A stretch of DNA of 64,000 nucleotides from Candidatus Adlerbacteria bacterium (GCA_029288895.1 JARIGK010000002.1:94986-158985); one strand, 5' to 3'. Positions 7,671-56,371 are shown, counted from the stretch's first letter. Notes: generated by a model from the letters alone, not told the origin. Program-made: numbers and translations.

Positions 7671-7671
7671 A

Positions 7672-34390: not shown

Positions 34391-34651
34391 TCATCTGTGG
34401 AGCTGTGACGCAACATTTTGGATGTAGTGCGCTATCCAGCCAAAGCCAGGCAATAGCCCAAAGAGCGACAAGAGCCAGCCCAATACAATAAGGGCGATGA
34501 TGCTGCCCACGATGGCACCCACACCCTGCAGCACGCCGCCGCGGAAGGCATTCCACGGGCTTGATGTGCGCTCTTTCAACTCGCTCAGCTCTTCTTCAAT
34601 ATTCTTTAAATGCTCAAGCCCCTCTTCAAGCTGGTCGTCTGTTTCGTCCAT
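34391..34651 (-). CDS. Small membrane protein
   Basis: ATG at 34651 directly downstream of a terminator; acidic N-terminus then two hydrophobic helices. Confidence 0.4.
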   Translation of the reverse strand: MDETDDQLEEGLEHLKNIEEELSELKERTSSPWNAFRGGVLQGVGAIVGSIIALIVLGWLLSLFGLLPGFGWIAHYIQNVASQLHR

Positions 34652-34665
34652 ATATAAAAAGTATA

Positions 34666-34700
34666 CCAACAAAAGAAAAACGGCCCGTGCGGGGGCCGTC
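34666..34700 (-). terminator. Intrinsic terminator
   Basis: Minus strand: gacggccc ccgcac gggccgt followed by TTTTCTTTTGTT. Confidence 0.6.
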
Positions 34701-34863
34701 ACATAAGAATCAAAATCCTGCCGCAGCAAGAACAACGCTTGTCGGGAGGAAATTCAACCTCTGCAATCTTCTCCTCTTCAGGGGTCAATTTCTCCTTGCG
34801 CTGTATCTTGTTGTAGATACGCTTTACTTCGTCAATGCGTGCAGATAATTCCTCGAATTTCAT
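34699..34863 (-). CDS. Unannotated small ORF (54 aa) with strong Shine-Dalgarno
   Basis: AAGGAGG 6 nt upstream of ATG at 34863; MKFEELSARIDEVKRIYNKIQRKEK...DKRCSCCGRILILM; stop lies in terminator stem; below the ORF-track size cutoff. Confidence 0.3.
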   Translation of the reverse strand: MKFEELSARIDEVKRIYNKIQRKEKLTPEEEKIAEVEFPPDKRCSCCGRILILM

Positions 34864-34958: not shown

Positions 34959-35369
34959 ATGTCGATATTCTACGAATCGACCAGGCGGGCCCGCAAAGCC
35001 CGCTACTGCGATTATTGCCCCCACATGATCGAGCCTGGAAACATCTACGAGCGAAAGTTCATCCGGCACGATAAGGGTGAAGCATCGCTCCGCAACATGC
35101 TCTGGTGCGAGCATATCGACCCACCCTGCCCTGACCCTTATATGGAGATGGTCGAGCCGGGTCTTGCCGAGATAGAGATCAAGGTAGAGCTTGGTGTGCC
35201 GATCGAGATGGTTTTAGAGAATCGTCTCATGCAAAAAGTTCTTATCAACGGAGAAGTGGTAACCGAAAATGAAGTGGTTACTGTCTTCCGCGAAGGTCAG
35301 GCAGTGCCCATGTTCGCCGACATCTTCGTTGGCCCCGATACAGGCGGCGATGAAGACATTGCGTTTTAG
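34959..35369 (+). CDS. Hypothetical Cys-rich protein
   Basis: 136 aa with CDYCPH...C...CPDP cysteine cluster; followed by hairpin plus T-run near 35372..35400. Confidence 0.45.
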   Translation: MSIFYESTRRARKARYCDYCPHMIEPGNIYERKFIRHDKGEASLRNMLWCEHIDPPCPDPYMEMVEPGLAEIEIKVELGVPIEMVLENRLMQKVLINGEVVTENEVVTVFREGQAVPMFADIFVGPDTGGDEDIAF

Positions 35370-35451: not shown

Positions 35452-35522
35452 TGCCCGATCGTCTAATGGTAGGACAGAGGCCTTTGAAGCCTTTAATCGT
35501 GGTTCGAATCCATGTCGGGCAG
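35452..35522 (+). tRNA. tRNA-Gln (anticodon TTG)
   Basis: Cloverleaf: acceptor TGCCCGA/TCGGGCA, anticodon loop CTTTGAA, T-arm CGTGG-TTCGAAT-CCATG, discriminator G; no encoded CCA. Confidence 0.8.
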
Positions 35523-35544
35523 CTCGTTAAGGTAGAATAAAGCT

Positions 35545-35949
35545 ATGGAAAAAACTTATATCGATAAGCTCGCTTTTATCGAGTTGAAAGATAGAAAAGT
35601 TTTGGAAACTAAAAGCCGCGGCAAAGATACATGGTATATACCCGGCGGGAAACGTGACGAAGGCGAAAGTGACGAACAAGCTTTAATACGAGAAGTCAAA
35701 GAGGAGTTAAATGTAGAAATTGATCCAACTACGATAGTTCATTATGGAACTTTCGAAGCGCAGGCTCATGGCAAACCAGAAGGCACGGTTGTTCGTATGA
35801 CTTGCTATCAGGCAAAATATTTTGGTGACCTGACCCCCAGTGCGGAAGTAGAAATGATGGATTGGTTCGACTACTCAAAAAAGAACTTAACATCTCCTGT
35901 AGATCAGATTATTTTTGACGATCTAAAAGATAGAAATCTGATTGATTAG
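35545..35949 (+). CDS. NUDIX hydrolase (cassette 1, tRNA-proximal; low GC about 40%)
   Basis: Nudix box GGKRDEGESDEQALIREVKEELNV. Confidence 0.85.
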   Translation: MEKTYIDKLAFIELKDRKVLETKSRGKDTWYIPGGKRDEGESDEQALIREVKEELNVEIDPTTIVHYGTFEAQAHGKPEGTVVRMTCYQAKYFGDLTPSAEVEMMDWFDYSKKNLTSPVDQIIFDDLKDRNLID

Positions 35950-35960
35950 GTTTGAAAAAA

Positions 35961-36045
35961 GTTCGAATATCGTCACCACACGAGTATTTCCATTTTTATA
36001 CTCACTTTGTTCGTTAAAAATGAGGTCGCCCAGACGGCCAGCTCG
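35961..36045 (+). repeat. Cassette-boundary repeat R1 (split copy: gttcgaatatcgtcacca ... cccagacggccagctcg with about 50-bp insert)
   Basis: Halves of the 30-bp consensus GTTCGAATATCGTCCCAGACGGGCAGCTCG; 3' flank CAGCTCGTTAGATAAAAG matches tRNA-Gln 3' flank CAGCTCGTTAAGGTAGAATAAAG. Confidence 0.65.
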
Positions 36046-36077
36046 TTAGATAAAAGAAAAACGACGCACATGCGTCG

Positions 36078-36416
36078 TTAATGGAGAGATGTTTTCCGGA
36101 TACTTTTCATCTTCTCCTCCAAGTCACAAAAGCCGAGTTTAATGAGTGCTGGCCTAGCTTCAATTGGGCCGCTCCAATACGCACCCATCTCATCGATGAT
36201 ATAGAGCGCCCCCTCAGATGTTAGGAGAGCAGGAAGATGTTTTTGTGCGACAAGACGTTTGATCTCCCTCCGAGACATTTTTGTAGACGGTTCCAATCCA
36301 AAAGAACTCATATTGGCTTCAATTTTTTCGAAGTCATTTTTGGAAAGAATTTCATCGCCGGGCATACATCCAAGAGCGCGGAGATTCTGTTCGTGCTTGC
36401 TCGGTTTCTTTGGCAT
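36078..36416 (-). CDS. Hypothetical protein (cassette 2)
   Basis: 112 aa; GAGGAGG RBS before ATG at 36416; palindromic terminator acgacgca-c-tgcgtcgt at 36057..36076. Confidence 0.5.
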   Translation of the reverse strand: MPKKPSKHEQNLRALGCMPGDEILSKNDFEKIEANMSSFGLEPSTKMSRREIKRLVAQKHLPALLTSEGALYIIDEMGAYWSGPIEARPALIKLGFCDLEEKMKSIRKTSLH

Positions 36417-36475
36417 GCAAATGCCTCCTCGATATATTTGAATCTAAGAGCAACGTACCATATCTTCCAGCAAGG

Positions 36476-36504
36476 TTCCAACTTCGTACCAGACGGGCAG
36501 CTCG
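36476..36504 (+). repeat. Cassette-boundary repeat R2 (hybrid type: TTCCAACTTCGTACC + AGACGGGCAGCTCG)
   Basis: 3' half identical to consensus; 5' half matches the variant seen in R6/R9. Confidence 0.65.
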
Positions 36505-36553
36505 TAAAAAAAGAAGAAGGCCGTCCATCCCATAAGGGAAGACGACCTTGAGT

Positions 36554-36862
36554 TCATGGCTTGTCGGGTGTCTCCTCGAAAGTGGCGACGCACTCCTTCA
36601 GGGAAAGGAAGAGTTCCTTTCGTTTGTTGAGGATAAAGGCATCGCCGACTTTGACGCGAAGTAACCAGATGTAGTTTGAGCCTTGAAAGACGGTCACACC
36701 GTTAAGGGTTACAGAATGATCACTAGGGTGACAGGCCATGACCCTCACGACCTCTTCAGGCGCGATGTAGAAATAACCACCGAGGCTGATTGAACGCTCG
36801 GCTCCAAAAGCTGGGGATGAAAGAACGAGTAGCGCACACACACCGGCGAATCGATTCAACAT
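36554..36862 (-). CDS. Hypothetical small secreted protein (cassette 3)
   Basis: Signal peptide MLNRFAGVCALLVLSSPAFGA; GGAGGA RBS. Confidence 0.5.
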   Translation of the reverse strand: MLNRFAGVCALLVLSSPAFGAERSISLGGYFYIAPEEVVRVMACHPSDHSVTLNGVTVFQGSNYIWLLRVKVGDAFILNKRKELFLSLKECVATFEETPDKP

Positions 36863-36977
36863 CACAATCCTCCAGATAAACAGGCCTTGATGAATTTACC
36901 ACACTTTTCTAAAATGTCAGCTCCATTTAATCGAGGAAGTTGGAGATTGCATGCACCATGCCCGCTCCCCTAAACTA

Positions 36978-37019
36978 GTTCGAATATCGTCACCACTATC
37001 GTCCCAGACGGGCAGCTAG
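36978..37019 (+). repeat. Cassette-boundary repeat R3 (gttcgaatatcgtcacca-ctatcgtc-ccagacgggcagctag)
   Basis: Consensus with 8-bp internal duplication; lies between divergent cassette genes. Confidence 0.65.
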
Positions 37020-37077
37020 TGACTTTTTGAATAATTTATTGTAGTTTCCATGGCGGGTCAGCACATGGAGGAACATA

Positions 37078-37617
37078 ATGACTGAGACAGCGGCTCGTGA
37101 GGGCAAGGGCGGTAGACTTCGTAGCGTCGAACGTCCAACGCGGCATCTGCCGAATTGCGCGCCGCCGGCACACACGAAGGTTTATGGCACGGGCGAGACC
37201 GAGCAGGAGCGACAGAGTGACATCTTCGAATTCGTCTGTGCAGAGGAATGGCACGACCACTTCGTCGGCTATTCATACGACCGCTCCAACCATCGGACTG
37301 GTCGCTACGACCGTCAGGGGTTGGTCCAGTCCGGCGCCATCATCTCGCTGGCATGCGGTCTCTCGAGCTGGATCTACCCAGATCATGTCCTGATCGACAT
37401 GGGCGAGATCAAGTTTCCGATTCCAATCTATGTCGGAGACAAGATTCGTCTGACATTCAGGAATCGTGCTCCGCAGGGCGTGCGGTACATCGACATCAAG
37501 CTCGAAGTCTTCCGCGAAGAGGAATGGCATGCGGTCTGCTCGACTCGCGCGGTTATTACCCGCTTCATCCCGCCGATTCGCAAGGACTATGTCGAGGCAC
37601 CGGATCAGTCGGCATAA
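37078..37617 (+). CDS. Hypothetical protein, possible hotdog-fold (cassette 4; high GC about 58%)
   Basis: GGAGGA RBS; 179 aa; composition markedly GC-richer than neighbours; followed by terminator 37631..37667. Confidence 0.5.
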   Translation: MTETAAREGKGGRLRSVERPTRHLPNCAPPAHTKVYGTGETEQERQSDIFEFVCAEEWHDHFVGYSYDRSNHRTGRYDRQGLVQSGAIISLACGLSSWIYPDHVLIDMGEIKFPIPIYVGDKIRLTFRNRAPQGVRYIDIKLEVFREEEWHAVCSTRAVITRFIPPIRKDYVEAPDQSA

Positions 37618-37630
37618 GTAGCAACATTGC

Positions 37631-37667
37631 AGACCGTTCCACTCAATCGGACGGTCTTTTCTTTTTA
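37631..37667 (+). terminator. Intrinsic terminator
   Basis: agaccgt tccactcaatcgg acggtct followed by TTTTCTTTTTAT. Confidence 0.7.
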
Positions 37668-37674
37668 TATATTT

Positions 37675-37704
37675 GTTCGAATATCGTCCCAGACGGCCAG
37701 CTCG
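37675..37704 (+). repeat. Cassette-boundary repeat R4 (GTTCGAATATCGTCCCAGACGGCCAGCTCG)
   Basis: Near-perfect consensus copy, 16 nt upstream of the next cassette ATG. Confidence 0.7.
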
Positions 37705-37720
37705 AGTATACTATTATCTA

Positions 37721-38225
37721 TATGCACCCAGAAGAATATCTAGACCTGGTGGATGAGAATGATCGGGTAATTGGGCGAGAACTTCGATCTACGATATACG
37801 CGAATGGTTGGAAGAATTTTCGGGTAGTTAATGTTTTTCTAAAAAATTCTAAAGGTCAACTTTGGATTCCTCGCCGCACTGCACACAAGGCAATATTTCC
37901 GTCAGCTCTAGACTTTAGCGCAGCAGGACATGTTTCAAGCGGAGAGTCATACGATGAAGCGTTTGCAAAAGAAGTCCAAGAAGAATTGAATATTGATGTT
38001 TCAAAGGTACGTCACCGACTATTGGGCTACCTCACCCCTAAGGATGGTGCCGTTCTTTTTATGCAGGTATACGAAATCGAAAGTGATGAGACGCCGCAGT
38101 ACAATCCAGATGACTTCAGCGAATCGTACTGGCTTACCCCTCAAGAAGTTGTTACTCGAATAGAGAATGGAGATTCTGCAAAAAATGATATTCCATTTTT
38201 GATCAAACGTTTCTATTTACAATAA
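37721..38225 (+). CDS. NUDIX hydrolase (cassette 5; low GC)
   Basis: Nudix box GHVSSGESYDEAFAKEVQEELNI; start ATG at 37721 (MHPEEYLDLV). Confidence 0.8.
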
Positions 38226-38250
38226 TTCGGATATCGTCCCAGACGGCTCG
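38226..38250 (+). repeat. Cassette-boundary repeat R5 (degenerate: TTCGGATATCGTCCCAGACGG-CTCG)
   Basis: Begins immediately after the NUDIX stop codon; 3-nt deletion relative to consensus. Confidence 0.6.
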
Positions 38251-38268
38251 TTTTGTTACAATTATTGA

Positions 38269-38610
38269 ATGCTGAAGATAAAGCGTGTATACGAACCGAT
38301 GGAGAAAAAAGATGGGTTGAGAATACTCGTTGATCGTCTCTGGCCTCGTGGGCTTACCAAAAACAAAGCTCATGTAGACTTCTGGATGAAAGATATTGCA
38401 CCCAGCCCAAAGTTACGAATATGGTTTGGGCATGAGCCAACAAAGTGGGTATTGTTCAAACGCCGCTATCTTGCAGAGCTGCATAAGAACAAAAAAGTGG
38501 TTGAGGAAATAAAGACCCATATGAAAGAGAATAAGAAAATTACTTTGCTATATGGAGCAAAAGATACAATGCACAACCATGCTCTCATACTTCAGGATTT
38601 TTTGTCCTAA
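38269..38610 (+). CDS. DUF488 (YeaO-like) family protein (cassette 6)
   Basis: RVYE...GLRILVDRLWPRG...W.KDIAPS..LR.WFGHEP..W..F...Y..EL......ITLLYGAKD pattern typical of DUF488. Confidence 0.75.
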   Translation: MLKIKRVYEPMEKKDGLRILVDRLWPRGLTKNKAHVDFWMKDIAPSPKLRIWFGHEPTKWVLFKRRYLAELHKNKKVVEEIKTHMKENKKITLLYGAKDTMHNHALILQDFLS

Positions 38611-38615
38611 TATAA

Positions 38616-38648
38616 TCCCAACTTCGTACCACACACCCAGCTAATGAC
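38616..38648 (+). repeat. Cassette-boundary repeat R6 (variant type: TCCCAACTTCGTACCACACACCCAGCTAATGAC)
   Basis: Shares TCCAAC.TCGTACCA with R2 and R9; diverged 3' half. Confidence 0.55.
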
Positions 38649-38700
38649 TTTTTAGTATAAATATTGTAAATTCTTTTTTGGAATAGAGGGAGGTGTTTGA

Positions 38701-39225
38701 ATGGACGAAGCTATGGAAAGTGCTCTTCGTTTTTATGAAGAGAATCGAGTGGGAAGTTTTGGGCGCCATGCTCATTTCCATTTTATGCAAGCGATGAAGT
38801 TAGGGTACGCCACTATGGCGCCCGAAGGCTCAATCGCTGAATTGCCAGGCTCGAAGACCATCGAGTATTCACATGAAAGATGGCGTGTTGTTGATACCTA
38901 CATCGTCACGCCGAACAGTCCGTATAGTGGCGGGACAACGATGCTGTACTATGATCCGCTGCCGGTGTTCATGATGCAATACCTCGGAAAGTATGAGGAG
39001 ATTGCAATCCCGTGCCTGAAAGCTGCACTCAAGGCCGGCTCAAGTGCCGGTGAATTCAATGGCGGACGCGGCCAAGATCTCTTTGTGCACGAAGGGTTCA
39101 CTTACACGAACGATGCATATGGAGATTTTTTCACCCACTCAAGCGCTTTCGAACAGATCTTCGATCCGAACAGACAACGCGTCGGTTGGCATCGTTGTCA
39201 GTCGATCTGGATGCTCCGGAAATAG
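38701..39225 (+). CDS. Hypothetical protein (cassette 7)
   Basis: GAGGGAGG RBS; 174 aa, no recognised domain; followed by terminator 39237..39268. Confidence 0.55.
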   Translation: MDEAMESALRFYEENRVGSFGRHAHFHFMQAMKLGYATMAPEGSIAELPGSKTIEYSHERWRVVDTYIVTPNSPYSGGTTMLYYDPLPVFMMQYLGKYEEIAIPCLKAALKAGSSAGEFNGGRGQDLFVHEGFTYTNDAYGDFFTHSSAFEQIFDPNRQRVGWHRCQSIWMLRK

Positions 39226-39236
39226 TAATTTCAACG

Positions 39237-39268
39237 ACGGCCGACTCAGTTGGCCGTTTTTCTTTTAT
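39237..39268 (+). terminator. Intrinsic terminator
   Basis: acggcc gactcagt tggccgt followed by TTTTTCTTTTAT. Confidence 0.7.
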
Positions 39269-39274
39269 AAATTC

Positions 39275-39304
39275 GTTCGAATATCGTCCTAGACGGGCGG
39301 CTCG
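39275..39304 (+). repeat. Cassette-boundary repeat R7 (GTTCGAATATCGTCCTAGACGGGCGGCTCG)
   Basis: Two substitutions relative to consensus; sits between convergent cassette genes, each with its own terminator. Confidence 0.7.
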
Positions 39305-39353
39305 TAAAATAAAAACATCGCGGATCATGCCGCGATGTGGAAGAACCGAGATT

Positions 39354-39620
39354 CTATTGATCAGGATCCCACGGTTTGAGTTGTGCACTATCGATGTCAC
39401 CAAACCCCTGAAAAAATACCCGTCTAAGCTCAGCAGCCTTGACGAGACATGTGTCGTGAATAACGATTTTCAATCTGTCGCCGTTCCCCGGGTCGAAGAC
39501 AGTTGATCCATAATTCCCTGTAGAGACAAACTCAACGCCGTCCTTTGGCAGATCAGTGCCTGGTCCGTTGAGATTTTCAATTTCTCTGCCGCATACGATG
39601 CAGGGAAGAGCGTTGACCAT
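39354..39620 (-). CDS. Hypothetical protein (cassette 8)
   Basis: 88 aa, AGGAGAG RBS; terminator hairpin catcgcgg-atcatgc-cgcgatg at 39316..39345 on minus strand. Confidence 0.5.
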   Translation of the reverse strand: MVNALPCIVCGREIENLNGPGTDLPKDGVEFVSTGNYGSTVFDPGNGDRLKIVIHDTCLVKAAELRRVFFQGFGDIDSAQLKPWDPDQ

Positions 39621-39682
39621 ATGTCTCTCCTGTGTTTAATCTGAGCAAAAGTTAGCACACATTTTTTCCTTTTTCCATATTC

Positions 39683-39712
39683 GTTCGAATATCGTCCCAG
39701 ACGGGCAGCTCG
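39683..39712 (+). repeat. Cassette-boundary repeat R8 (GTTCGAATATCGTCCCAGACGGGCAGCTCG, consensus copy)
   Basis: Exact consensus; between stop of cassette-9 gene and start region of cassette-8 gene. Confidence 0.7.
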
Positions 39713-39763
39713 CTAGATAATAGAAAACCGCTCACCTTTCAGTGAACGGTTCGTGCCGAACGG

Positions 39764-40072
39764 CTACTCTGCGTTCGAAAATTCCATTTTTCCTGTTCGA
39801 TCGTTGCTATTGTACTCGACCGAAATCCAATTGTATGGAGGTAATTTCTTTTTATCTTCGGCACTAATTTCTGACAATTGTCCGCCAAGTTTGTAATTTG
39901 ATCCATGGCACGTGACGAATTGAAAGTTGTAAATCTTTAGCCTAACAACTAAGGGCTGACCTTCAACGAAAAGTGTGAACTTAGCCACTGCTCCCAAATT
40001 ACGTGCGACGAACGCCTGCTCAAGATCGCGCTGACCTGGGCCATTGCCTATGTAGAGCCATGGAAGAGTCAT
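39764..40072 (-). CDS. Hypothetical protein (cassette 9)
   Basis: 102 aa, no recognised domain. Confidence 0.5.
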   Translation of the reverse strand: MTLPWLYIGNGPGQRDLEQAFVARNLGAVAKFTLFVEGQPLVVRLKIYNFQFVTCHGSNYKLGGQLSEISAEDKKKLPPYNWISVEYNSNDRTGKMEFSNAE

Positions 40073-40206
40073 AAAGATCTCCGGGGTTTGAAAAGAACAA
40101 TCACATCAAACATAAAGAAGGATGTGAGCCGTCAGACTATCTGGCAGCAGGAAAACAGTAAATTTTTATCACGTATACGTCAAGTTCCTGAGTTAACTCT
40201 CTAAAA

Positions 40207-40236
40207 TTCCAACGTCATACCACACACCTCTCAAAC
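40207..40236 (+). repeat. Cassette-boundary repeat R9 (most diverged variant: TTCCAACGTCATACCACACACCTCTCAAAC)
   Basis: Aligns with R6/R2 5' half; distal-most copy. Confidence 0.5.
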
Positions 40237-40264
40237 TTATCCAAACAAGGCGTATTATTACCGA

Positions 40265-40501
40265 ATGTACTTCGTATATATGCTCGAGTGTAGCGACGGG
40301 TCGCTGTATACCGGCATTACGACTGATGTAAAAAGACGCTTCCAAGAACATAAGGCTGGCAAAGGCGGGCACTTCACCAGCTCGAGAGACGTTGTAAAAA
40401 TTGTATACACCGAAGAACATCCGGACAGGTCGTCTGCATCCAAACGCGAAGCCGAAATAAAACGCCTGCGCCGAGCAGACAAATTAAAGTTGATTTCATA
40501 G
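40265..40501 (+). CDS. GIY-YIG domain protein (UPF0213/YhbQ-like, 78 aa)
   Basis: MYFVYMLECSDGSLYTGITTDVKRRFQEHKAGKGGHFT GIY-YIG signature. Confidence 0.75.
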   Translation: MYFVYMLECSDGSLYTGITTDVKRRFQEHKAGKGGHFTSSRDVVKIVYTEEHPDRSSASKREAEIKRLRRADKLKLIS

Positions 40502-40556
40502 AAATTTCAGTGCCCACCTTCAGCAACTTTTAACCGCGTATGCAGTTATATGAAGT

Positions 40557-40814
40557 ATGTCCAAAGGGAAACGGATTTTGGGAAGTATTGCTATTGCTGT
40601 CGTTGCAGTGGGTGCTTTTTTGGGGTACCAGGTGTACCGAACGAACGCGGCCCATTCATCATTTGAAAACTACTACGCATTCCGTGGATGCCAAGAATTG
40701 ATCGAAAAAACTGACTCCTTCGCTACCTGCCGGCTTGCCGACGGCTCGATTATTAAACTCGTACTCATAAACAACAAGTGGTACCTCGACGGCGACGGCC
40801 CCGGTATTTGGTAG
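40557..40814 (+). CDS. Small membrane-anchored hypothetical protein
   Basis: 85 aa with N-terminal TM helix; possible degenerate boundary repeat just upstream (40507..40535). Confidence 0.4.
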   Translation: MSKGKRILGSIAIAVVAVGAFLGYQVYRTNAAHSSFENYYAFRGCQELIEKTDSFATCRLADGSIIKLVLINNKWYLDGDGPGIW

Positions 40815-40833
40815 AAATTGGTATAATTGATAG

Positions 40834-41130
40834 ATGAAACTTACTGGCGGCACCGTACACACCCTTCCTCCAGATTTGAAAGCGGCGCTCGCCAAAGATG
40901 CGAAGGCAGCACGTTTGTGGGAAGAGATTACCCCGCTCGCCCGCAATGAATGGATCTGCTGGACCATTTCAGTAAAGCAAGACAAAACGCGCAACGACCA
41001 TGTTAAGCGCGTCGTATCGGAGTTAAAAGACGGCATGCGCCGCCCCTGCTGCTGGATAGGCTGCATCCATCGCACCGACAAAAAAGTGAGCCGCTCTGTA
41101 CAGTTCGTCCTCGCAAAACGCTCTAAATAA
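40834..41130 (+). CDS. YdeI/OmpD-associated (OmdA) family protein
   Basis: DLKAALAKDAKAARLWEEITPLARNEWICWTISVKQDKTRNDHVKRVVSELKDGMRRPC matches the YdeI/OmdA family pattern. Confidence 0.6.
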   Translation: MKLTGGTVHTLPPDLKAALAKDAKAARLWEEITPLARNEWICWTISVKQDKTRNDHVKRVVSELKDGMRRPCCWIGCIHRTDKKVSRSVQFVLAKRSK

Positions 41131-41148
41131 TAGTGCTACAATTCCCGC

Positions 41149-41520
41149 ATGAAGGAACGGCACAAAAAGCGGATCGTTCATTGGTTTACGTCCGAAGAAA
41201 AATTTATTAAAACTCCTGTCGGCATTTTTTTGCTTGGATGTTTTTTGGGCGAGCTTTCTCCCGACCCTACAGACGCCGTTCATTTTTGGCTGCAACAGCA
41301 TGTACTTAACAATCCTACATTCCCTGCATTTTGGCGTGCATTTTTGCAGGTCTTCGACTGGTACTTTATGAGCGCATGTTACTTTCTCCTGTTGCTCATA
41401 CTCGCCTACTTCTTGCACATAACCAACGTCGGCGCTGTCAAACGCTTTACTATCGTTGCAGGTGTTTTAAGCATCGGCGCCGCTGTCGGCATCTTGGCGC
41501 AGTTTGTCATAGGCAGTTAG
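41149..41520 (+). CDS. Hypothetical membrane protein
   Basis: 123 aa, 3 hydrophobic helices; weak RBS. Confidence 0.35.
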   Translation: MKERHKKRIVHWFTSEEKFIKTPVGIFLLGCFLGELSPDPTDAVHFWLQQHVLNNPTFPAFWRAFLQVFDWYFMSACYFLLLLILAYFLHITNVGAVKRFTIVAGVLSIGAAVGILAQFVIGS

Positions 41521-41524
41521 TACG

Positions 41525-41974
41525 ATGAACTACTGGCTTCTCAAAACAGAACCAAGCGCGTATTCGATAGACGATTTAAAGCGCGACAAAACAACTGCCT
41601 GGGAGGGCGTGCGCAACTACCAGGCGCGCAACTTTATGCAACAGATGAAGAAGGGAGATTTATGCCTCTTCTACCACTCGAGCACGGAACCTGTTGGTGT
41701 ATTTGGCGTCGCAAAGGTAACAAAAGAAGCCTATCCTGATGCATCACAGTTTAATAAAAAAGATTCGCACTTCGACCCGAAGGCCACGAAAGAAAAACCT
41801 ATCTGGTTTTGCCCCGACATTACCTTTGTCAAAAAATTTAAAGAGCCGTTCCTTTTGACGCATATCAAAGCCGACCATGCCCTGCGCGGCATTATGGTCG
41901 CCCAGCAAGGCTCGCGCCTTTCCGTCCAGCCCGTATCCGAAATGCATTTCACATATATCACCAAAAACGCGTAG
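41525..41974 (+). CDS. EVE (PUA-like) domain protein
   Basis: MNYWLLKTEPSAYSIDDLKRDKTTAWEGVRNYQARNFMQQMKKGDLCLFYHS is the typical EVE-domain N-terminus. Confidence 0.8.
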   Translation: MNYWLLKTEPSAYSIDDLKRDKTTAWEGVRNYQARNFMQQMKKGDLCLFYHSSTEPVGVFGVAKVTKEAYPDASQFNKKDSHFDPKATKEKPIWFCPDITFVKKFKEPFLLTHIKADHALRGIMVAQQGSRLSVQPVSEMHFTYITKNA

Positions 41975-42019
41975 CATTCTACACGCGAAATTCACGAGTG
42001 CTCTGCGACTATTGAGCAC

Positions 42020-42490
42020 ATGAACGAATTTGTAAGTACAAAGGTTGGCGAGGTACTGGCGTTTGCACGCCTCTGTACCGATACGCTTGAAATGGGGCGC
42101 AGCGCGCTCGCAGAGATGGTTGGCGAAGAACGCCTCGACAGCGCAGAAGACGAACTTGAGACCCTCGAGCGCTCGATAGCTGCCTTGGCACAGGACGAAC
42201 ATGCCGTTGTGGCAATCGAGACATCCGCGACACAGACGCAAGAAAAATTGCGCACCATGCGCGACACCTATATCGACGGCAATTGGGACGAAGCCAGCGA
42301 AGTGCTTGAATGGCTCGGCTTTTCGACTGGCGCCGCATTGGTGCATTGGCACTTGCTCGCCGGCGCTGCACGCGCCACGGACGACAGCGGGCTTGCCGAT
42401 GTGGCAAAAGACGCGATCCGTTTCTACACATCGCTCTTTAGCTCGGACGAAGCAGTTCTTGCCGAGATCGGTGCATCAGCGGCCGCCTAA
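42020..42490 (+). CDS. Hypothetical acidic protein
   Basis: 156 aa, Ala/Glu-rich, relatively GC-rich; no recognised family. Confidence 0.4.
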   Translation: MNEFVSTKVGEVLAFARLCTDTLEMGRSALAEMVGEERLDSAEDELETLERSIAALAQDEHAVVAIETSATQTQEKLRTMRDTYIDGNWDEASEVLEWLGFSTGAALVHWHLLAGAARATDDSGLADVAKDAIRFYTSLFSSDEAVLAEIGASAAA

Positions 42491-42533
42491 GAAAAACCCG
42501 CGAGCAATGCCCGCGGGTGTAGTAGGTACAGAA

Positions 42534-43124
42534 CTATTCTTCCTCACTTTCATCCTCGCCCTGGCCGCCCTCTGGTTTGCCGCTCTTGGGCCTGCGAGAC
42601 GAAGGCGAAATGACAGAGACGCGAAGTTTTTTTACCTGCATGGCACTTGCTGTTGCAGTACGCACATCGGCATTTTCCTTACCCTCTGCCAACAAGCGTA
42701 TGGGCTGGAGCGCACGTTCGGTGACTTTTTGCCATACCGGTTTCGACAGTGCCTGCTCGAGATAGCCCGGGTTCACGGTCAGCTCAAAACTCGTTGCAAT
42801 GAGCGTTTTTCCTAGCTTCCCTTCTATCTCCTCGACGCCAGTGTGCGCCCAGTGCGGAAGCAATTGCCCCACAAGCGTCTCGCGGCGTTCCAGCAGCGGA
42901 TTCAACTGTTGCTGGATTTTTTCAAGCTCGTCGACAAGTTCGACAACCTTCTCTGGCTTAAGTTGCGGGCCTTTTGCTCTCTCTGCCCTGCGGCGTTTCG
43001 AGATCGCCTGATTTTTAACACTCTCTGCAAGTGCCTCAAACCAGCTATATGCCTGTCGTAGTTTTTTTGTAACTCCAACATGCGTTGGGCCCGATGCTTT
43101 TCGTGCCTGCGCAGTGACTACCAT
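42534..43124 (-). CDS. Hypothetical protein with acidic C-terminal tail
   Basis: Start trimmed to ATG at 43124 preceded by GAGGAGAAGAGGG RBS; 196 aa, basic N-terminus, coiled-coil-like centre, EDESEEE tail. Confidence 0.5.
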   Translation of the reverse strand: MVVTAQARKASGPTHVGVTKKLRQAYSWFEALAESVKNQAISKRRRAERAKGPQLKPEKVVELVDELEKIQQQLNPLLERRETLVGQLLPHWAHTGVEEIEGKLGKTLIATSFELTVNPGYLEQALSKPVWQKVTERALQPIRLLAEGKENADVRTATASAMQVKKLRVSVISPSSRRPKSGKPEGGQGEDESEEE

Positions 43125-43243
43125 CCCTCTTCTCCTCGATCTGCTATGAATTAACTCGTCAATGAAGAACTCTCCGACCAGCAACTCTACACAACCCACA
43201 TAAACCTCACATGAAGTACAGAACGAGTTGCTATACTTGGTAT

Positions 43244-43753
43244 ATGCAAAAAATCACAGCTCATCTTTGGTACGACAAAGAAGCAGAAGAGGCCATCAAT
43301 TACTACGTCGACGTGTTTAACGGCGCCCCCAACAAAGAGGCCGAGTCACAAGTGCTCAGCATCACCCGCTACCCTGAAGGTGGCACAGGCCCCATGGCCG
43401 GTATGGACGGCAAAGTGCTTACTGGCGTCTTCGAGTTGGCCGGCCAGCGCTTTATGGCGCTCGATGGCGGCCCCATCTTCAAGTTCAACGAGTCGATCTC
43501 AATGCTCGTCAATTGTAAAACCCAAGAAGAAATAGACTATTTCTGGGGCAAACTCTCTGCCGTGCCCGAAAGCGAACAGTGCGGCTGGTGCAAAGACAAA
43601 TTCGGCCTTTCGTGGCAAATCAACCCCACCGAAATTATGGGCAAGATGATGGACGGTTCTAACCCAGCAAAAACAAAAGCTGTCATTGCAGCCTTTATGC
43701 CGATGAAGAAGCTGGATATCGCAGCACTCCAAGCCGCCTACGACGCGGCGTAG
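43244..43753 (+). CDS. VOC-family protein of the 3-demethylubiquinone-9 3-methyltransferase-like (PhnB-like) domain family
   Basis: MQKITAHLWYD...AEEAINYYVDVF...VLTGVFELAGQRFMALDGGP.FKFNESISMLVNCKTQEEIDYFWGKLS...CGWCKDKFGLSWQI. Confidence 0.75.
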   Translation: MQKITAHLWYDKEAEEAINYYVDVFNGAPNKEAESQVLSITRYPEGGTGPMAGMDGKVLTGVFELAGQRFMALDGGPIFKFNESISMLVNCKTQEEIDYFWGKLSAVPESEQCGWCKDKFGLSWQINPTEIMGKMMDGSNPAKTKAVIAAFMPMKKLDIAALQAAYDAA

Positions 43754-43754
43754 C

Positions 43755-44306
43755 CTACATTAGCTTCGTTTCCTCATCTTCTTCGTCCATATCGTTGGCG
43801 CGCTCGTTTACGCCCGACGTTGCGAGCTCGTTCAACTTTTCATCCGTTGCCTCTTCCTCCTCGAGCGTCTCCTCAAGCAGGTCGGCGACTTCGGTGTGGC
43901 CCATTTCGCGCGCCCACTCCACAGCGCTGCCATAGCCAGCGATTTCGTAATGCTCTACATACTGCGCCGCGGCGATCAAGTTTGCGTCAAGCGCTTCGCT
44001 TCCCTCGACGTTCTTGATCACCCATTCGCCATCAGCTATAAGGCCGCGTATCGCTTCGCTTTTTAATTTCTTCGGCTTTTCATTAAGCAATTCAAATGCT
44101 TTTTCGAGGCGCTCGATCTGCCCTTTTGTTTGCTCCAAATGTTCTTCAAACCCTGATTTCAATTCTGCATCGCTCGCAGCCTTTGCCATCTTAGGCAAGG
44201 CTTTGGTAATTTCATGCTCAACGTCGTAGAGCGACTGCATCTTGGTAATAAGCAAATCATGGAGCGTCATAGACTCCTGTGATTTTGATTTCTTTGTTGT
44301 AGCCAT
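43755..44306 (-). CDS. Ferritin-like DUF892 (YciE/YciF) family protein
   Basis: LHDLLITKMQSLYDVEHEITKALPKMAKAA...FEEHLEQTKGQIERLEKAFELL pattern of DUF892; acidic C-terminus. Confidence 0.75.
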   Translation of the reverse strand: MATTKKSKSQESMTLHDLLITKMQSLYDVEHEITKALPKMAKAASDAELKSGFEEHLEQTKGQIERLEKAFELLNEKPKKLKSEAIRGLIADGEWVIKNVEGSEALDANLIAAAQYVEHYEIAGYGSAVEWAREMGHTEVADLLEETLEEEEATDEKLNELATSGVNERANDMDEEDEETKLM

Positions 44307-47998: not shown

Positions 47999-49270
47999 CT
48001 ACTTCTTCTCTATCTTTTCGCGGCCGCCCATGTACGGACGGAGGGCTTCGGGGATGGTGATGGAGCCGTCTTCGTTTTGGTTGTTTTCGATGATGGAGAT
48101 AAAGATGCGCGGAGTTGCGAGTGCAGTGTTGTTAAGCGAGTGCGCGTGCTGCATGGCACCTTCGTCGTCTCGGTAGCGGATGTTCAAACGGCGAGTTTGG
48201 AAGTCGTGGAAGTACGACGACGAGTGTGTCTCGCGGTAGCGGTTTTCGGACGGCACCCACGATTCGATGTCGTATTTCTTTACTTGCCCTAACCCCAAGT
48301 CGCCGCCACAGTTAACGACAACATGGTATGGGATGTTCAGCGCCTGGAGCAGATCTTCGGCATTCTTGGTGAGCTCCTCGTGGAGGCGCACCGACTCTTC
48401 GTGTGACGCTTCCGAGAGCACCACTTGTTCAAACTTAAAGAATTCATGCACGCGCATAAGGCCCTTGGTGTCTTTGCCATGACTGCCCGCTTCGCGGCGG
48501 AAGCATGGCGAGAATGACATAAACTTCAGCGGCAATTCTTTTTTATCAAGCACTTCGCTCATGTAGTAGGCCATCGTTGCAACTTCTGCAGTGCCTGCCA
48601 AGAAATCATCATCCTGCGTTTTGTACAAATCTTCTTCGCCCTGGGGCAAGTAGCCAGTGCCCAAGAATGCAACACGTTTTACCAACGATGGCACGATCAT
48701 CGGCGTAAAGCCGCCTTTTTTAACAAAGTGGTCGAGCACAAACTGCCACACGGCAAAGTTCAACAACGCACCATCGCCTTTTAAAACATAGCCGCGGAAG
48801 CCGGCAACTTTCGTGCCGCGCTCAAAATCAGCCATATCTAAATTCTGCATCAATTCGACATGAGATTTGGGCGTGAAGGAAAAGTTCGACGGCGTGCCCC
48901 ACGTACGCACTTCGACGTTGTCTGCGTCCGAGGCGCCTTCTGGCACCGAGAGGTCCGGGATGTTTGGCACCTGCACCATGAGGGCCTGCCATTCATGTTC
49001 GACAGTTTTGAGTTCTTCTTCGCCCTTGGCCATTTCTTCCTTTACCTGCTTCATATCTGCAAGTAGAGCCTCTTTTTCTTCGGGCGAGGCAGAGACAATT
49101 TTTGCATTTGCTGCATTCTGTTTTGCGCGCAACGTTTCCGTCTCTGTGAGCAATTCGCGGCGGCGTGCGTCTACGGCCAAGAGCTTGTCCAAATCGACAT
49201 CAATATGCTTTTTCTTCGCACCCGCTTTTACCGCATCGATATTTTCGCGGATGAATTTTATATCCAACAT
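47999..49270 (-). CDS. serS: Serine--tRNA ligase
   Basis: N-terminal coiled-coil arm, class II aaRS motifs (FRRE, GSHGKDTKGLMRVHEF, GDLGLGQ); start MLDIKFIREN at 49270. Confidence 0.9.
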   Translation of the reverse strand: MLDIKFIRENIDAVKAGAKKKHIDVDLDKLLAVDARRRELLTETETLRAKQNAANAKIVSASPEEKEALLADMKQVKEEMAKGEEELKTVEHEWQALMVQVPNIPDLSVPEGASDADNVEVRTWGTPSNFSFTPKSHVELMQNLDMADFERGTKVAGFRGYVLKGDGALLNFAVWQFVLDHFVKKGGFTPMIVPSLVKRVAFLGTGYLPQGEEDLYKTQDDDFLAGTAEVATMAYYMSEVLDKKELPLKFMSFSPCFRREAGSHGKDTKGLMRVHEFFKFEQVVLSEASHEESVRLHEELTKNAEDLLQALNIPYHVVVNCGGDLGLGQVKKYDIESWVPSENRYRETHSSSYFHDFQTRRLNIRYRDDEGAMQHAHSLNNTALATPRIFISIIENNQNEDGSITIPEALRPYMGGREKIEKK

Positions 49271-49300
49271 ATAGCCAGTTTTATACTTACAAATAGTACA

Positions 49301-50164
49301 ATGCGCTTCCCTATACGACAACTAACCCACAAAGAGTTCCCGAGGCTCCTCAAAGAGATCCCCGACCCGCCAAAACACCTCTATATACGAGGCGAGCTAC
49401 CCTCGGACGACACTATATATCTATGTGTCGTGGGTTCGCGCTCGTGCACATCGTACGGGCGGCGCATGGTGCGTAAACTAATCGCAGGGTTGGCACAGTA
49501 CAAGGTCGCAATTGTCTCGGGGTTGGCCTTGGGTATGGATTCGGAGGCACACAGGGCCGCACTTGATGTCGGCTTACCCACTGTGGCTGTGTTGCCATCG
49601 TCCTTAGACGACGCATCGCTCTACCCGTCGACCAACGTGCCGCTCGCGCACACCATACTTACAAAGGGCGGCGCGCTCATTTCTGAAAACGAGGCGCCGT
49701 TTATTGCGATGCTGCACTCCTTCCCACAACGCAACCGCATTGCCGCAGGGATGTCGAAAGTTACACTTATTGTAGAAGCTGGCGAAAAGTCGGGCACGCT
49801 CATAACTGCACGCCTCGCACTCGACTACAACCGCGAAGTGCTCGCCATCCCACACGAGCTTGAAAGACCCACGGGCGTCGGTATCAATCGCTTGCTCCGG
49901 GAGGGCGCAACGCTGGTGCGTGACTCACGCGATATCGCACAGGCACTGGGTTTAAAAACAGACGACATACCCGTACAAGCCACACTCCCTGTAGACCTCA
50001 CAGAGCACGAATCCGCCATACTCACTCTATTAATAGAGCCGCTTGCTGCAGACGAATTAATTGAGCAATCAAATCTTTTGGCGCATGAAGTAAACATCGT
50101 GCTTTCGTCATTGCTCATCCGTGGGCTGATAACAGAGCGGTTAGGAAAAATTGAACGTGTATGA
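49301..50164 (+). CDS. dprA: DNA processing protein A (Smf)
   Basis: Rossmann-like DprA domain (VVGSRSCTSYGRRM...VSGLALGMDSEAHRAAL...LIVEAGEKSGTLITARLALDYNREV) and C-terminal winged-helix. Confidence 0.85.
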   Translation: MRFPIRQLTHKEFPRLLKEIPDPPKHLYIRGELPSDDTIYLCVVGSRSCTSYGRRMVRKLIAGLAQYKVAIVSGLALGMDSEAHRAALDVGLPTVAVLPSSLDDASLYPSTNVPLAHTILTKGGALISENEAPFIAMLHSFPQRNRIAAGMSKVTLIVEAGEKSGTLITARLALDYNREVLAIPHELERPTGVGINRLLREGATLVRDSRDIAQALGLKTDDIPVQATLPVDLTEHESAILTLLIEPLAADELIEQSNLLAHEVNIVLSSLLIRGLITERLGKIERV

Positions 50165-50177
50165 TAGAACAACTGGC

Positions 50178-54463: not shown

Positions 54464-55069
54464 TTAGCCCAAATGCGCGTGATCGTTCCAGGTGAGCAGT
54501 TTCCACGCACCATCATATTCGAGTACCGTTATACCTGTGTTTGAAGTCATTATATTGTTCATTGCGCGCTCTTCCTGCTCCCACGTTGCTGAATCACCAA
54601 ACAAAACAGCAAGCACCATATGGCGCAAGAAGCGTCCGTGAGTTACAACAACGATAGAATCTTCGGGCTGCTCTGCAATATATGCGAGTGCCTGTTTTGC
54701 ACGCGCATGTAGCATCGCCGGGGTTTCTTCATCTTCGTACTGCCAATCGCGATTGCGCTTAACTAGATAGTCTTGAACAATTTCTTCTTTGTACTGAATT
54801 CCAATAAAAGAGGTTGGATATTTAGCTTCTGCAAATAAAGGAGAGAAGCGCGGTTCGTGCCCTGTGCGTTCTGCAATCTTTTCTGCAGTTTGCTTTGCAC
54901 GAAGCATATCGCTCGAAAGCAAAAGATCGAATTGAACACGCGTAAGGCGGTCTGCAATCATTCCTGCTTGCTCTATGCCCTTTTCAGCCAACGCATCAGC
55001 GCCGTCTTGCACGCGGCTTTCTATATTAAATTTGGTCAGCCCGTGCCGGACAAAATAAACTTTTTTCAT
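54464..55069 (-). CDS. Histidine phosphatase family protein (phosphoglycerate mutase-like)
   Basis: Catalytic RHG (YFVRHGLT), second His in VVVTHGRF. Confidence 0.8.
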   Translation of the reverse strand: MKKVYFVRHGLTKFNIESRVQDGADALAEKGIEQAGMIADRLTRVQFDLLLSSDMLRAKQTAEKIAERTGHEPRFSPLFAEAKYPTSFIGIQYKEEIVQDYLVKRNRDWQYEDEETPAMLHARAKQALAYIAEQPEDSIVVVTHGRFLRHMVLAVLFGDSATWEQEERAMNNIMTSNTGITVLEYDGAWKLLTWNDHAHLG

Positions 55070-56175
55070 AGAGAGAAGTTGCTTGGGTCGAAGCTGTTTT
55101 CGTCAGCTTCTTTTTCTTCTTTACTGCGATCGTCCAAAATTTCTGCCGGTTTTTCGTCAGGTACTACTTCTGCAGGGGTTACTGCTTCTGTAGCAGGAAT
55201 AAGCTCGGTCGAAACGTTGGGTGACGAAGGCGAAATATCGGCTGTAGGGGGTTTGCTGAGCGACGGCGAAGCAACTTCAGCTGATTCGGCAGCAGTCGAA
55301 TCAGCGTACCCGGAGGACGATGATTTCGCCGTAGTTTTGCCCTGTGCGATGCGGCTTGCGAGAGCGGCGAAGAGAACGCGAAGGTCATCTTCGCTCATAA
55401 AGTCTATAGAAAGTTTGCCGCCGTGTTCTTTTGGCTCGATTGCCACGCGAGTACCAAGCGCCTGCGTCAATTCGCTTTCCATCTCCAAAATCTCGGGCGA
55501 ATAGATATATTCTTTCTTGCGCACGCGGTCAAACGCGATGCGGCGCGCGATCGACTCCGTGTCGCGCACTGTGAGGCGCTTGAGCATGATCTCGCGGAAG
55601 AGCACGCCCTGCTCTTGCGGCCTGTCTGCAAGCATCAAGAGCGGGCGTGTGTGGCCTTCGGCGATTTTGCCGTCTGCCAACGCGTCCTGCATGTCTTTGG
55701 GCAACATCAAAAGGCGCAACGTGTTCGAAACATACTCGCGGCTCTTGCCCACTTTTTGTGCAACTTCTATATGCTTAAATCCGAACTCGTTTACCAAGCG
55801 GGCAAACGCATGCGCGCGGTCCATTGGGTTTAGGTCTTCGCGCTGGAGGTTTTCGATGATAGCGACTTCTAGCTTTGTTTTGTCGTCATCGTAGTCGGCG
55901 CGGATAATAACCGGCACTTGCGCGACGCCCGCCAAGCGCGACGCGCGCAAACGGCGCTCGCCCGCTATCAATTCATATTCGGTACCAATACCGCCGTCGG
56001 ATTTCTCGAATTCTTTGCGCGTAACGGTCAGCGGCTGGATGACACCGTACTGGCGGATGGACTTTGCCAAGTCCTCGAGCTTGGCTTGGTCGAACTCGCG
56101 GCGGGGTTGGTACGGGTTTGGCTTAATTTTGTCGACTTCGACCCAGAAGATAGCGTTGTTGAAAAATTCTGACAT
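55066..56175 (-). CDS. parB: ParB/Spo0J-like partition protein with low-complexity Ser/Pro/acidic C-terminal tail
   Basis: ParB box (GVIQPLTVTR, ELIAGERRLRASRLAG), HTH; start trimmed to MSEFFNNAIF at 56175 because the longer ORF runs through tRNA-Leu. Confidence 0.85.
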   Translation of the reverse strand: MSEFFNNAIFWVEVDKIKPNPYQPRREFDQAKLEDLAKSIRQYGVIQPLTVTRKEFEKSDGGIGTEYELIAGERRLRASRLAGVAQVPVIIRADYDDDKTKLEVAIIENLQREDLNPMDRAHAFARLVNEFGFKHIEVAQKVGKSREYVSNTLRLLMLPKDMQDALADGKIAEGHTRPLLMLADRPQEQGVLFREIMLKRLTVRDTESIARRIAFDRVRKKEYIYSPEILEMESELTQALGTRVAIEPKEHGGKLSIDFMSEDDLRVLFAALASRIAQGKTTAKSSSSGYADSTAAESAEVASPSLSKPPTADISPSSPNVSTELIPATEAVTPAEVVPDEKPAEILDDRSKEEKEADENSFDPSNFSL

Positions 56176-56220
56176 TGACGATATTCTAGCATAGCTAGAC
56201 AAACGTTCGAAAAATCGTAA

Positions 56221-56301: not shown

Positions 56302-56371
56302 CAAAGTTTCCTGTAGCCTATTTTTATAGTAAGGTCTCCCTAGTTGAACATTTAACCCAAGGAGACGTCCG

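Follow-up and report, generated by a model that had tools for sequence, protein, structure and literature searches.

A 64,000-nt stretch of a Candidatus Adlerbacteria genome (GCA_029288895.1, JARIGK010000002.1:94986-158985; hereafter the window) carries, directly downstream of a tRNA-Gln gene, an array of ten small gene cassettes that are delimited by copies of a short, directly repeated element that we term R. We found that R is the 3′ end of a tRNA-Gln with a 5-nt insertion and that it is conserved across many species, two properties that go beyond the initial annotation of this DNA. R is strictly confined to one locus and one strand, and related arrays differ from one another at the level of individual cassettes. 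We favour the reading that the cassettes are exchanged by site-specific recombination at this tRNA-tail-like site, through a recombinase encoded elsewhere in the genome, and we give this reading an even chance of being right.

An array of single-gene units behind tRNA-Gln

The array had been described as about ten single-gene units anchored at tRNA-Gln(TTG) and separated by nine repeats of one orientation, with genes facing both ways. This organisation is borne out: ten single open reading frame (ORF) intervals follow the tRNA gene, six with a gene on the + strand and four with a gene on the - strand, and every R lies in the orientation of the tRNA (+). The count of nine repeats holds in part, as seven copies are clear, R1 is split and R9 is marginal; furthermore, R3 is composite and R5 has lost its 3′ end. 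The features are, in order:

35452..35523, + strand: tRNA-Gln, anticodon TTG (ARAGORN; 62.8 bits with the Rfam tRNA model), the array anchor; its 3′ end ...GGTTCGAATCCATGTCGGGCAGC is the first boundary
35545..35949, + strand: cassette 1, NUDIX hydrolase (Pfam PF00293, E = 1.2e-12; PADLOC PDC-S07, E = 4.5e-15)
35961..36042, + strand: R1, split; left part 35961-35984 GTTCGAATATCGTCACCACACGAG, a gap of ~40 nt, right part 36026-36042 TCGCCCAGACGGCCAGC
36078..36416, - strand: cassette 2, 112 aa, no family match; own terminator at 36060-36079
36475..36501, + strand: R2, GTTCCAACTTCGTACCAGACGGGCAGC, subtype CCAAC.T..A; 37.4 bits
36554..36865, - strand: cassette 3, 103 aa, no family match; N-terminus signal-peptide-like by reading
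36978..37016, + strand: R3, composite of R positions 1-19 GTTCGAATATCGTCACCAC and 8-27 TATCGTCCCAGACGGGCAGC; 24.6 bits at 36990
37078..37617, + strand: cassette 4, 179 aa, G+C clearly above its neighbours; very small family
37675..37701, + strand: R4, GTTCGAATATCGTCCCAGACGGCCAGC, identical to the cross-species consensus; 53.4 bits
37722..38225, + strand: cassette 5, NUDIX hydrolase, YfcD/IPP-isomerase-like (Pfam, E = 1.6e-13; NCBIfam)
38225..38251, + strand: R5, 3′ end lost, ATTCGGATATCGTCCCAGACGG; 32.3 bits; overlaps the stop codon of the NUDIX gene 37722..38225
38269..38610, + strand: cassette 6, DUF488 (Pfam PF22752/PF04343, E = 3.6e-36)
38615..38641, + strand: R6, diverged subtype, ATCCCAACTTCGTACCACACACCCAGC; 24.8 bits; repeat family D6
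38701..39225, + strand: cassette 7, 174 aa, weak DUF5680 match (Pfam); own terminator at 39236-39258
39275..39301, + strand: R7, GTTCGAATATCGTCCTAGACGGGCGGC; 40.1 bits
39354..39620, - strand: cassette 8, 88 aa, no family match; own terminator at 39315-39338
39683..39709, + strand: R8, GTTCGAATATCGTCCCAGACGGGCAGC, 0 mismatches to the 30-mer consensus; 48.7 bits
39764..40072, - strand: cassette 9, 102 aa, no family match; own terminator at 39725-39752
40206..40232, + strand: R9, decayed and marginal, ATTCCAACGTCATACCACACACCTCTC; 5.2 bits; repeat family D6
40265..40501, + strand: unit 10, stand-alone GIY-YIG protein (Pfam PF01541, E = 1.1e-19)

The bit scores are those of a position-weight matrix (PWM) for R built from 146 non-redundant copies, with which both strands of the window were scanned. 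The strong copies, at 36475, 36990, 37675, 38225, 38615, 39275 and 39683, score 24.6-53.4 bits; the background maximum is 0.1 bits on either strand over the whole 64 kb, and it is against this value that the 5.2 bits of R9 are to be read. The PWM scan found no R copy in the window outside 35.9-40.2 kb. The 30-mer consensus GTTCGAATATCGTCCCAGACGGGCAGCTCG occurs exactly at 39683, with one mismatch at 37675 and with two at 39275, for a chance expectation of 0. The two halves of R1 were also picked up by a scan for orphan half-sites, and R1 is probably a deletion scar left by a lost unit.

Pfam confirms two NUDIX hydrolases, a DUF488 protein and a GIY-YIG protein among the cargo, as initially annotated. 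Several of the remaining products match no family; that of 36554-36865 has, by reading, a signal-peptide-like N-terminus. A "hotdog-like" fold proposed for 37078-37617 was not confirmed, this gene having no Pfam or NCBIfam match and an AlphaFold predicted local distance difference test (pLDDT) score of 50; its family comprises just 3 clusters among 5.8 billion proteins. One homologue of this gene lies in a 13.4-kb locus (L186) that is without R, and the 1.4-kb contig of the third family member also shows none. Homologues of the GIY-YIG protein occur inside the array of locus L037 and beside that of L064. No exact record of the DUF488 gene, or of the flanking gene 34959-35369, was present in the sequence collection searched.

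The claim that each unit has its own ribosome-binding site and often its own terminator stands for the terminators at several boundaries: terminator-like hairpins flank R at the four positions listed with cassettes 2, 7, 8 and 9, and a fifth can be read before R4. Clear Shine-Dalgarno-like sequences were found only for some genes (37078, 38701 and 40265). Besides its positions next to promoters, R also lies between convergent gene ends (e.g. R1 and R7 of the window).

R derives from the 3′ end of tRNA-Gln

The aligned copies define R as a sharply bounded 27-mer with the sequence of R4, preceded by a conserved A at position -6 (129 of 146 copies; sequence logo). Positions 1-4, 7, 10-13, 15-17, 19-20 and 24-26 carry about 1.4-1.9 bits of information each, positions 5, 6, 8, 9, 14, 18 and 21-23 carry little, and information drops to about 0 bits in the flanks. 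Within single arrays, copies of the main type are interspersed with subtypes such as GTTCCCACGTCGTACCAAACCCCCAGC and GTTCCAACATCGTCCCAGAC; interleaved subtypes differ at 5-8 of the 27 positions (the window, L027, L042 and L014), the invariant positions being common to all.

Aligned on tRNA-Gln 3′ ends with MAFFT, R extends from the T loop to the base that follows the discriminator and is set apart from the tRNA tails by a single 5-nt insertion after GTTCGA. With the insertion removed, R differs from the tRNA-Gln tail of L054 at 4 of 22 positions, and the A at -6 is found in the tRNA as well. The resident tRNA tail is mostly ...GTCCTAGTCCCGCAGC, yet R is unchanged; R does not follow the resident tRNA and is therefore a propagated derivative of a tRNA tail, not a displaced local tail. 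Five of the window's copies carry GGGCAGC like the resident tRNA, the usual form being GGCCAGC; this may point to exchange with the tRNA tail in the part of R that lies 3′ of about position 22.

The initial annotation held that the boundary is not a classical attC site, and the structural comparison agrees. The best complement to R positions 1-12 within 150 nt scores 7.26 upstream and 7.30 downstream, and that to positions 13-27 scores 8.35 and 8.34. There is thus no excess complementarity upstream of R, no inverted partner and no palindrome; because an inverted partner is lacking, R is not an attC site. By reading, R has neither dyad symmetry nor a hairpin of its own that is kept across subtypes. 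Rfam gave no match other than tRNA at R or at the related elements E and F described below.

Differences between subtypes fall mostly on every third base, which suggested that R might be a coding fragment (+ strand, S-N-I-V-P-D-G-Q; - strand, L-A-V-W-D-D-I-R-T). We rejected this reading because R does not lie inside ORFs in either frame and half of the putative third positions are invariant; the open codons around R have medians of 5.5 upstream and 17 downstream on the + strand, and of 11.5 and 16 on the - strand.

R is confined to one locus and one strand across species

A scan of one genome per species for TTCGRATATCGTCCYAGACGG returned 25 stretches in 24 assemblies, nearly all of them labelled Patescibacteria, Parcubacteria or Paceibacterota, with a single R locus in each of the 24 genomes. 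A metagenome scan added 40 further contigs, giving a total of 65 loci which, together with the window, make up 465 kb. Three of these loci (L032, L033 and L040) come from Hainich groundwater. In this set, 171 R sites of at least 10 bits lie on the seed-match (tRNA-Gln) strand and 0 on the other, and fuzzy matching gave 162 versus 0. Copies of R are preceded by a tRNA-Gln gene in the same orientation, mostly with anticodon CTG and in some cases TTG, in 24 non-redundant loci other than the window. The longest arrays hold 12 R in 5.4 kb (L042), 9 in 6 kb (L027) and 12 in 10 kb (L047), and one contig split between L040 and L033 holds 8 over 10 kb. The interval from one R to the next has a median of 638 nt (interquartile range 506-948 nt, range 65-5828 nt). 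In the literature searched, we found no description of the R sequence or of such arrays in Patescibacteria.

For genes on the + strand, the stop codon mostly lies 1-8 nt before R (17 cases with a gap of 4 and 12 with a gap of 2), which places R in the 3′ untranslated region (UTR) of these genes. The CAGC that ends R is often followed by AATTGACTTT, which holds a -35-like box, or by TCG.TATTTTCGTGTCATAAT, and otherwise by the terminator of a - strand gene; the -35-like TTGACT stands directly 3′ of many R copies. The same start, AATTGACTTT, follows the tRNA's own ...GCAGC in L024, L040 and L050 and the ...CCAGC of R in many loci. As the same cassette starts occur after the tRNA and after R, the tRNA tail and R are equivalent left borders.

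One metagenome-assembled genome labelled "uncultured planctomycete" (L016, CACYBR010000102.1) has a single R-like copy, which may be a mis-binned Patescibacteria contig or else a chance or solitary site. A viral source of R was considered and rejected, as neither the exact R nor the tail of E has a match in viral contigs. A degenerate pattern, R-B/C, did match more than 120 viral contigs (L066-L185); these are coincidental coding matches to the C5 DNA methyltransferase motif VWDDVGTF and to a few tail proteins. This coincidence would mislead any motif-based search for R.

Related arrays differ cassette by cassette, with breakpoints at R

The array is not a fixed syntenic block: the flank upstream is syntenic, and the genes downstream and their order differ. 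Seven loci share CTP synthase (pyrG), SAM synthetase (metK), a DUF1761-like membrane protein and FtsE/FtsX ahead of tRNA-Gln, and the genes downstream of the tRNA are unrelated among them. Cassette order varies as well, L001 having fam23-fam13, and L018 and L021 having fam13, another unit and then fam23. R-flanked NUDIX cassettes homologous to 37722..38225 were found by phmmer in L022/L035/L039, L040 and L052.

Where rearrangements can be followed, their breakpoints coincide with R. A duplicated unit in L008 runs through R and ends ~3 nt past it. L032 and L035 share a 647-nt cassette at 99% identity, and both of its neighbours differ; in L035 it stands after the tRNA, and in L032 after a copy of the tRNA tail inside the array. 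Furthermore, R is identical at 26-27 of 27 positions beside cassettes that share just 67-85% DNA identity.

Further boundary elements resemble the tRNA tail

Relatives carry R/tRNA-tail hybrids and two further kinds of boundary related to the tRNA tail, none of which occurs in the window. Exact tails of the resident type stand as internal boundaries in L005, L023, L032, L049 and L059. They form the 3′ end of a structured element, F, of ~145-156 nt, in which a tRNA 5′ acceptor strand, a hairpin, the 5′ strand of a T stem, a three-way domain of ~100 nt, the 3′ strand of the T stem and the 3′ acceptor strand follow one another. The closing stems of F copy the acceptor and T stems of the adjoining tRNA, with the three-way domain at the position of the T loop; this domain has a conserved GGUGUAC, a YGUAA loop, CGAGAAG and a UAAU loop. 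Among five sequences, 22 of the 48 predicted pairs show compensatory changes. A covariance model found eight copies and 0 in the window. Each F copy follows R, or a real tRNA-Asp in the case of L006, together with a hairpin. F may be an undescribed RNA family.

L005 6457-6612 and 7395-7539, and L023 7718-7871, strand not marked: F copies
L032 2923-3070, L044 315-459, L049 4510-4654, L059 9896-10038 and L006 1841-1989, - strand: F copies

The second element, E, is ~95 nt long, has a CTCGAG/CTCGAG closing stem and ends in ...GGTTCTAACTCGAGACGGCCAGC, which is the tail of R minus the 5-nt insertion; coordinates marked ~ were read off sequence print-outs.

L012 ~6528-6616, L027 ~5679-5768, L046 ~1030-1143 and L059 ~9043-9133, - strand: E copies
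L047 ~6480-6566 and L052 ~790-882, strand not marked: E copies
L001 4850-4882 and L031 12555-12579: partial E copies

Just upstream of the E element and the R array of L012 lies a reverse transcriptase gene (6683-7735, - strand) with the LPLGNLTSQ motif typical of diversity-generating retroelements.

Proposed site-specific recombination and its alternatives

The confinement of R to one strand and one locus, its footprint-like conservation, its tRNA ancestry and the breakpoints at R are together best fitted by site-specific recombination. We hypothesize that the locus is a hotspot at which small self-contained units would be inserted, lost and exchanged. Each unit would have a median length of ~640 nt and usually one ORF, often with a promoter and/or terminator of its own, and would end in R; the 3′ end of the real tRNA-Gln would serve as the first site of the array, and units would start immediately after the common ...CAGC, at the tRNA and at each R. 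R would then play the part of attC and the tRNA tail that of attI, through a linear, tRNA-derived site and not a folded palindrome. We infer that the joining is done by a dedicated sequence-specific recombinase, whose gene would lie elsewhere in the genome, with the crossover at or near CAGC.

Several observations weigh against this proposal. In the window, Pfam finds neither a recombinase of the tyrosine or serine type nor a transposase, nor any other enzyme known to act in recombination, in agreement with the absence of an integrase noted initially; the annotation covered essentially all window ORFs and showed ordinary chromosomal genes (uvrB, tgt, bipA, dnaX, serS, dprA, topA, relA/spoT, parB and miaA). 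XerD-like and resolvase-like phmmer probes, which would miss very divergent recombinases although their positive control worked, matched nothing in the window and the 65 loci (best E 1.2), a search that covered ~45 arrays in the window plus ~400 kb (~465 kb in total). The large ORFs inside arrays that we inspected with Pfam are cargo and include no recombinase; array cargo comprises restriction-modification systems, an AbiU2 HEPN protein, a ParB-like nuclease with HNH repeats, a RelA/SpoT-like protein, a reverse transcriptase of the type found in diversity-generating retroelements, and enzymes. R lacks the dyad symmetry usual for recombinase core sites, and at the presumed crossover the tRNA tail and R invariably share just CAGC, plus 0-7 further bases. 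The quality of R has no trend along the array as one moves away from the tRNA (Spearman 0.21, p = 0.08), which does not support insertion only at the tRNA-proximal end. Arrays from the same species sampled twice are identical (L022/L035/L039/L043, L010/L064 and L025/L062), so turnover is not fast, and circular intermediates and empty sites are not observable with these data.

That no recombinase lies near any array is what would be expected if R were a portable homology anchor, with R-flanked cassettes entering by transformation and being swapped through RecA/DprA-dependent homologous recombination. Under this explanation, which we consider unlikely, R would be uniform because only cassettes with the consensus R can spread, and the absence of dyad symmetry and of insertion polarity is in its favour. 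DprA (DNA-processing protein A) is a recombination mediator in natural transformation and is encoded in the window, which bears on this model of cassette entry. However, 27 nt lies at the lower limit for RecA-dependent exchange, and interleaved subtypes that differ at 5-8 of 27 positions, yet keep the same invariant positions, would defeat exchange by homology. The abrupt end of conservation at both borders of R fits a protein footprint, and a tRNA-Gln tail standing beside tRNA-Gln is left unexplained. Natural competence, which would favour such entry, is reported for cultivated Saccharibacteria (preprint PMC10187176). The array could instead be a fossil record, in which larger integrase-bearing elements entered tRNA-Gln serially and each decayed to one gene and an att scar, with no system operating at present. 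Elements that integrated in tandem at tRNA genes and are separated by partial copies of the tRNA are well documented, for example in Prochlorococcus islands (bioRxiv 10.1101/2020.12.28.424599), and give this idea a precedent. Decay is moreover real, as seen in split or composite R copies (R1 and R3 of the window, and L001 4828) and in the decayed R6 and R9, and exact tRNA tails do occur as boundaries. We nevertheless find it similarly improbable. Scars should drift, whereas R hardly varies from species to species and is more strongly conserved than the genes on either side of it. All subtypes carry the same 5-nt insertion, which is absent from any real tRNA-Gln, and this makes them copies of one propagated site and not independently displaced tRNA ends. 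Neither an Xer-like or resolvase-like gene nor a fragment of one was found by phmmer in the window plus ~400 kb that cover ~45 arrays, and the regular single-ORF unit size (interquartile range 506-948 nt) would be unexpected from random decay.

A role for R at the level of RNA or transcription, as an insulator, as an operator bound by a regulator of the accessory genes, or as a signal for punctuation or processing that resembles a tRNA, would have the boundaries reflect expression; R does mimic a tRNA 3′ half, lies in the 3′ UTR of most + strand genes, is directly followed in many units by the -35-like TTGACT, and has in F a clearly structured relative. Against this, R keeps its orientation whatever that of the flanking genes. 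It is also found between convergent ends that have their own terminators, and its presence there as well as beside promoters is better fitted by a structural role in the array than by one in gene expression. R has no 5′ partner for a tRNA-like helix and matches no Rfam family, and by reading none of its own hairpins is maintained across the subtypes; the coincidence of breakpoints with R would be unexplained. We hold such a role to be very unlikely. Cassette capture and the accretion of mini-integrative elements, the two possibilities raised in the initial annotation, remain the two leading readings, and they are not separated decisively because no recombinase was found.

Comparison with known systems

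Among known systems, integrons and clusters of attC sites lacking integron integrases (CALINs) are alike in having mostly single-ORF units that each end in a recombination-type site of one orientation, accessory and conflict-type cargo, and contents that differ among related genomes with breakpoints at the sites; like CALINs, the array has no adjoining integrase. They differ in the site, which here is a linear 27-nt derivative of the tRNA-Gln tail that starts with GTTCGAA and has no attC fold, whereas attC is an imperfect palindrome of 60-140 nt with R''/R' boxes and a GTTRRRY core. The anchor is a tRNA gene instead of an attI beside intI, and no intI is present. The cassettes here occur in both orientations and frequently carry promoters and terminators of their own, in contrast to the mostly promoterless cassettes of one orientation that are expressed from the integron promoter Pc, and the host phylum here is Patescibacteria. 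We regard it as possible, though on balance doubtful, that the arrays are an independent Patescibacteria analogue of the integron, in which the tRNA-Gln 3′ end would be the primary site and R the cassette site, sometimes inside F or E. Such a platform, served by a dedicated recombinase whose gene would lie at a distance from the array, would provide bacteria of minimal genome size with accessory and defence genes.

Tandem elements at tRNA sites, such as the tycheposon islands of Prochlorococcus and the accretion of integrative and conjugative elements (ICEs) and cis-mobilizable elements (CIMEs), share the anchoring at a tRNA 3′ end in the same orientation, units between direct repeats of tRNA-tail origin and a hypervariable island beside core genes; exact tRNA tails are present here too, at a minority of boundaries in the loci named above. 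Tycheposons and genomic islands are multi-kilobase elements with their own integrase and often replication genes (bioRxiv 10.1101/2020.12.28.424599), in contrast to the units of ~0.4-1 kb described here, where no Xer-like or resolvase-like ORF was found near any of ~45 arrays. Moreover, R does not copy the resident tail but is a separate variant, conserved across species, that carries the 5-nt insertion.

The pdif modules of Acinetobacter and the integrative mobile elements exploiting Xer (IMEX) at dif resemble the array in their small modules, sites of ~28 nt and a recombinase that is not encoded by the module. By reading, however, R does not resemble dif and lacks its 11-6-11 dyad architecture; successive pdif sites point in opposite directions, whereas R copies are all direct; and, unlike Xer/dif modules, the array is anchored at a tRNA gene, the cumulative GC skew running monotonically through the locus without a turn.

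Clustered regularly interspaced short palindromic repeats (CRISPR) likewise consist of direct repeats of ~30 nt, all facing the same way within one locus. As had been stated initially, this is not a CRISPR array, since the intervals of 65-5828 nt (median 638) hold complete genes, the repeat subtypes are interleaved and no cas family is present in the window. Nor is R a genome-wide repeat of the repetitive extragenic palindrome (REP) type, having one locus per genome, the strand counts of 171 versus 0 and its confinement within the window. REPs, bacterial interspersed mosaic elements (BIMEs) and miniature inverted-repeat transposable elements (MITEs) are dispersed, occur in both orientations and are usually palindromic, whereas R is restricted to a single locus and one strand and is non-palindromic.

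Patescibacteria have tiny genomes with few recognised mobile elements, and their gain of accessory genes is poorly understood. The array is a compact site of flexible gene content that recurs across this lineage, and its 27-nt R can be searched for and modelled and offers a handle for finding the missing recombinase. The arrays also catalogue small accessory and conflict genes (NUDIX, DUF488, EVE, GIY-YIG, AbiU2 and restriction-modification), and R might be usable as a site for gene insertion in organisms that are hard to manipulate. If a dedicated enzyme exists, the arrays would represent a second way of capturing cassettes, one that evolved independently of the integron.

Flanks of the array in the window

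Beyond unit 10, core genes resume at dnaX (44370). The intervening segment contains:

40557..44306, no strand: probable older variable part with no recognisable R (Pfam)
40834-41130: OmdA/YdeI (Pfam)
41525-41974: EVE (Pfam)
43211-43753: PhnB-like gene (Pfam)
43755-44306: DUF892 (Pfam)

The variable region probably extends to ~44.3 kb and consists of old units with decayed R copies. In L030 and L042, the OmdA/YdeI gene stands between R copies as a cassette, which adds to the evidence that units move. Homologues of the PhnB-like gene are found close to the arrays of six further loci and, wherever the layout can be made out, on the downstream side of R.

On the upstream side, the protein of the gene 34959-35369 has itself as sole homologue. 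The gene 34391-34735 (- strand), also upstream of tRNA-Gln, is homologous to an ORF of L008 (E = 5.8e-25) that has an R copy on either side and shares this stretch with two larger ORFs of the opposite strand; this homology suggests that the upstream flank of the window may also hold transferred accessory genes.

Further downstream, dprA (49205-50161; Pfam E = 1.3e-63) adjoins topA, the two spanning 49205-52520. The longest ORF call for parB (55066-56613, - strand) crosses tRNA-Leu (56221-56302, + strand); since the Pfam match begins at residue 157, the true start of parB probably lies downstream of tRNA-Leu.

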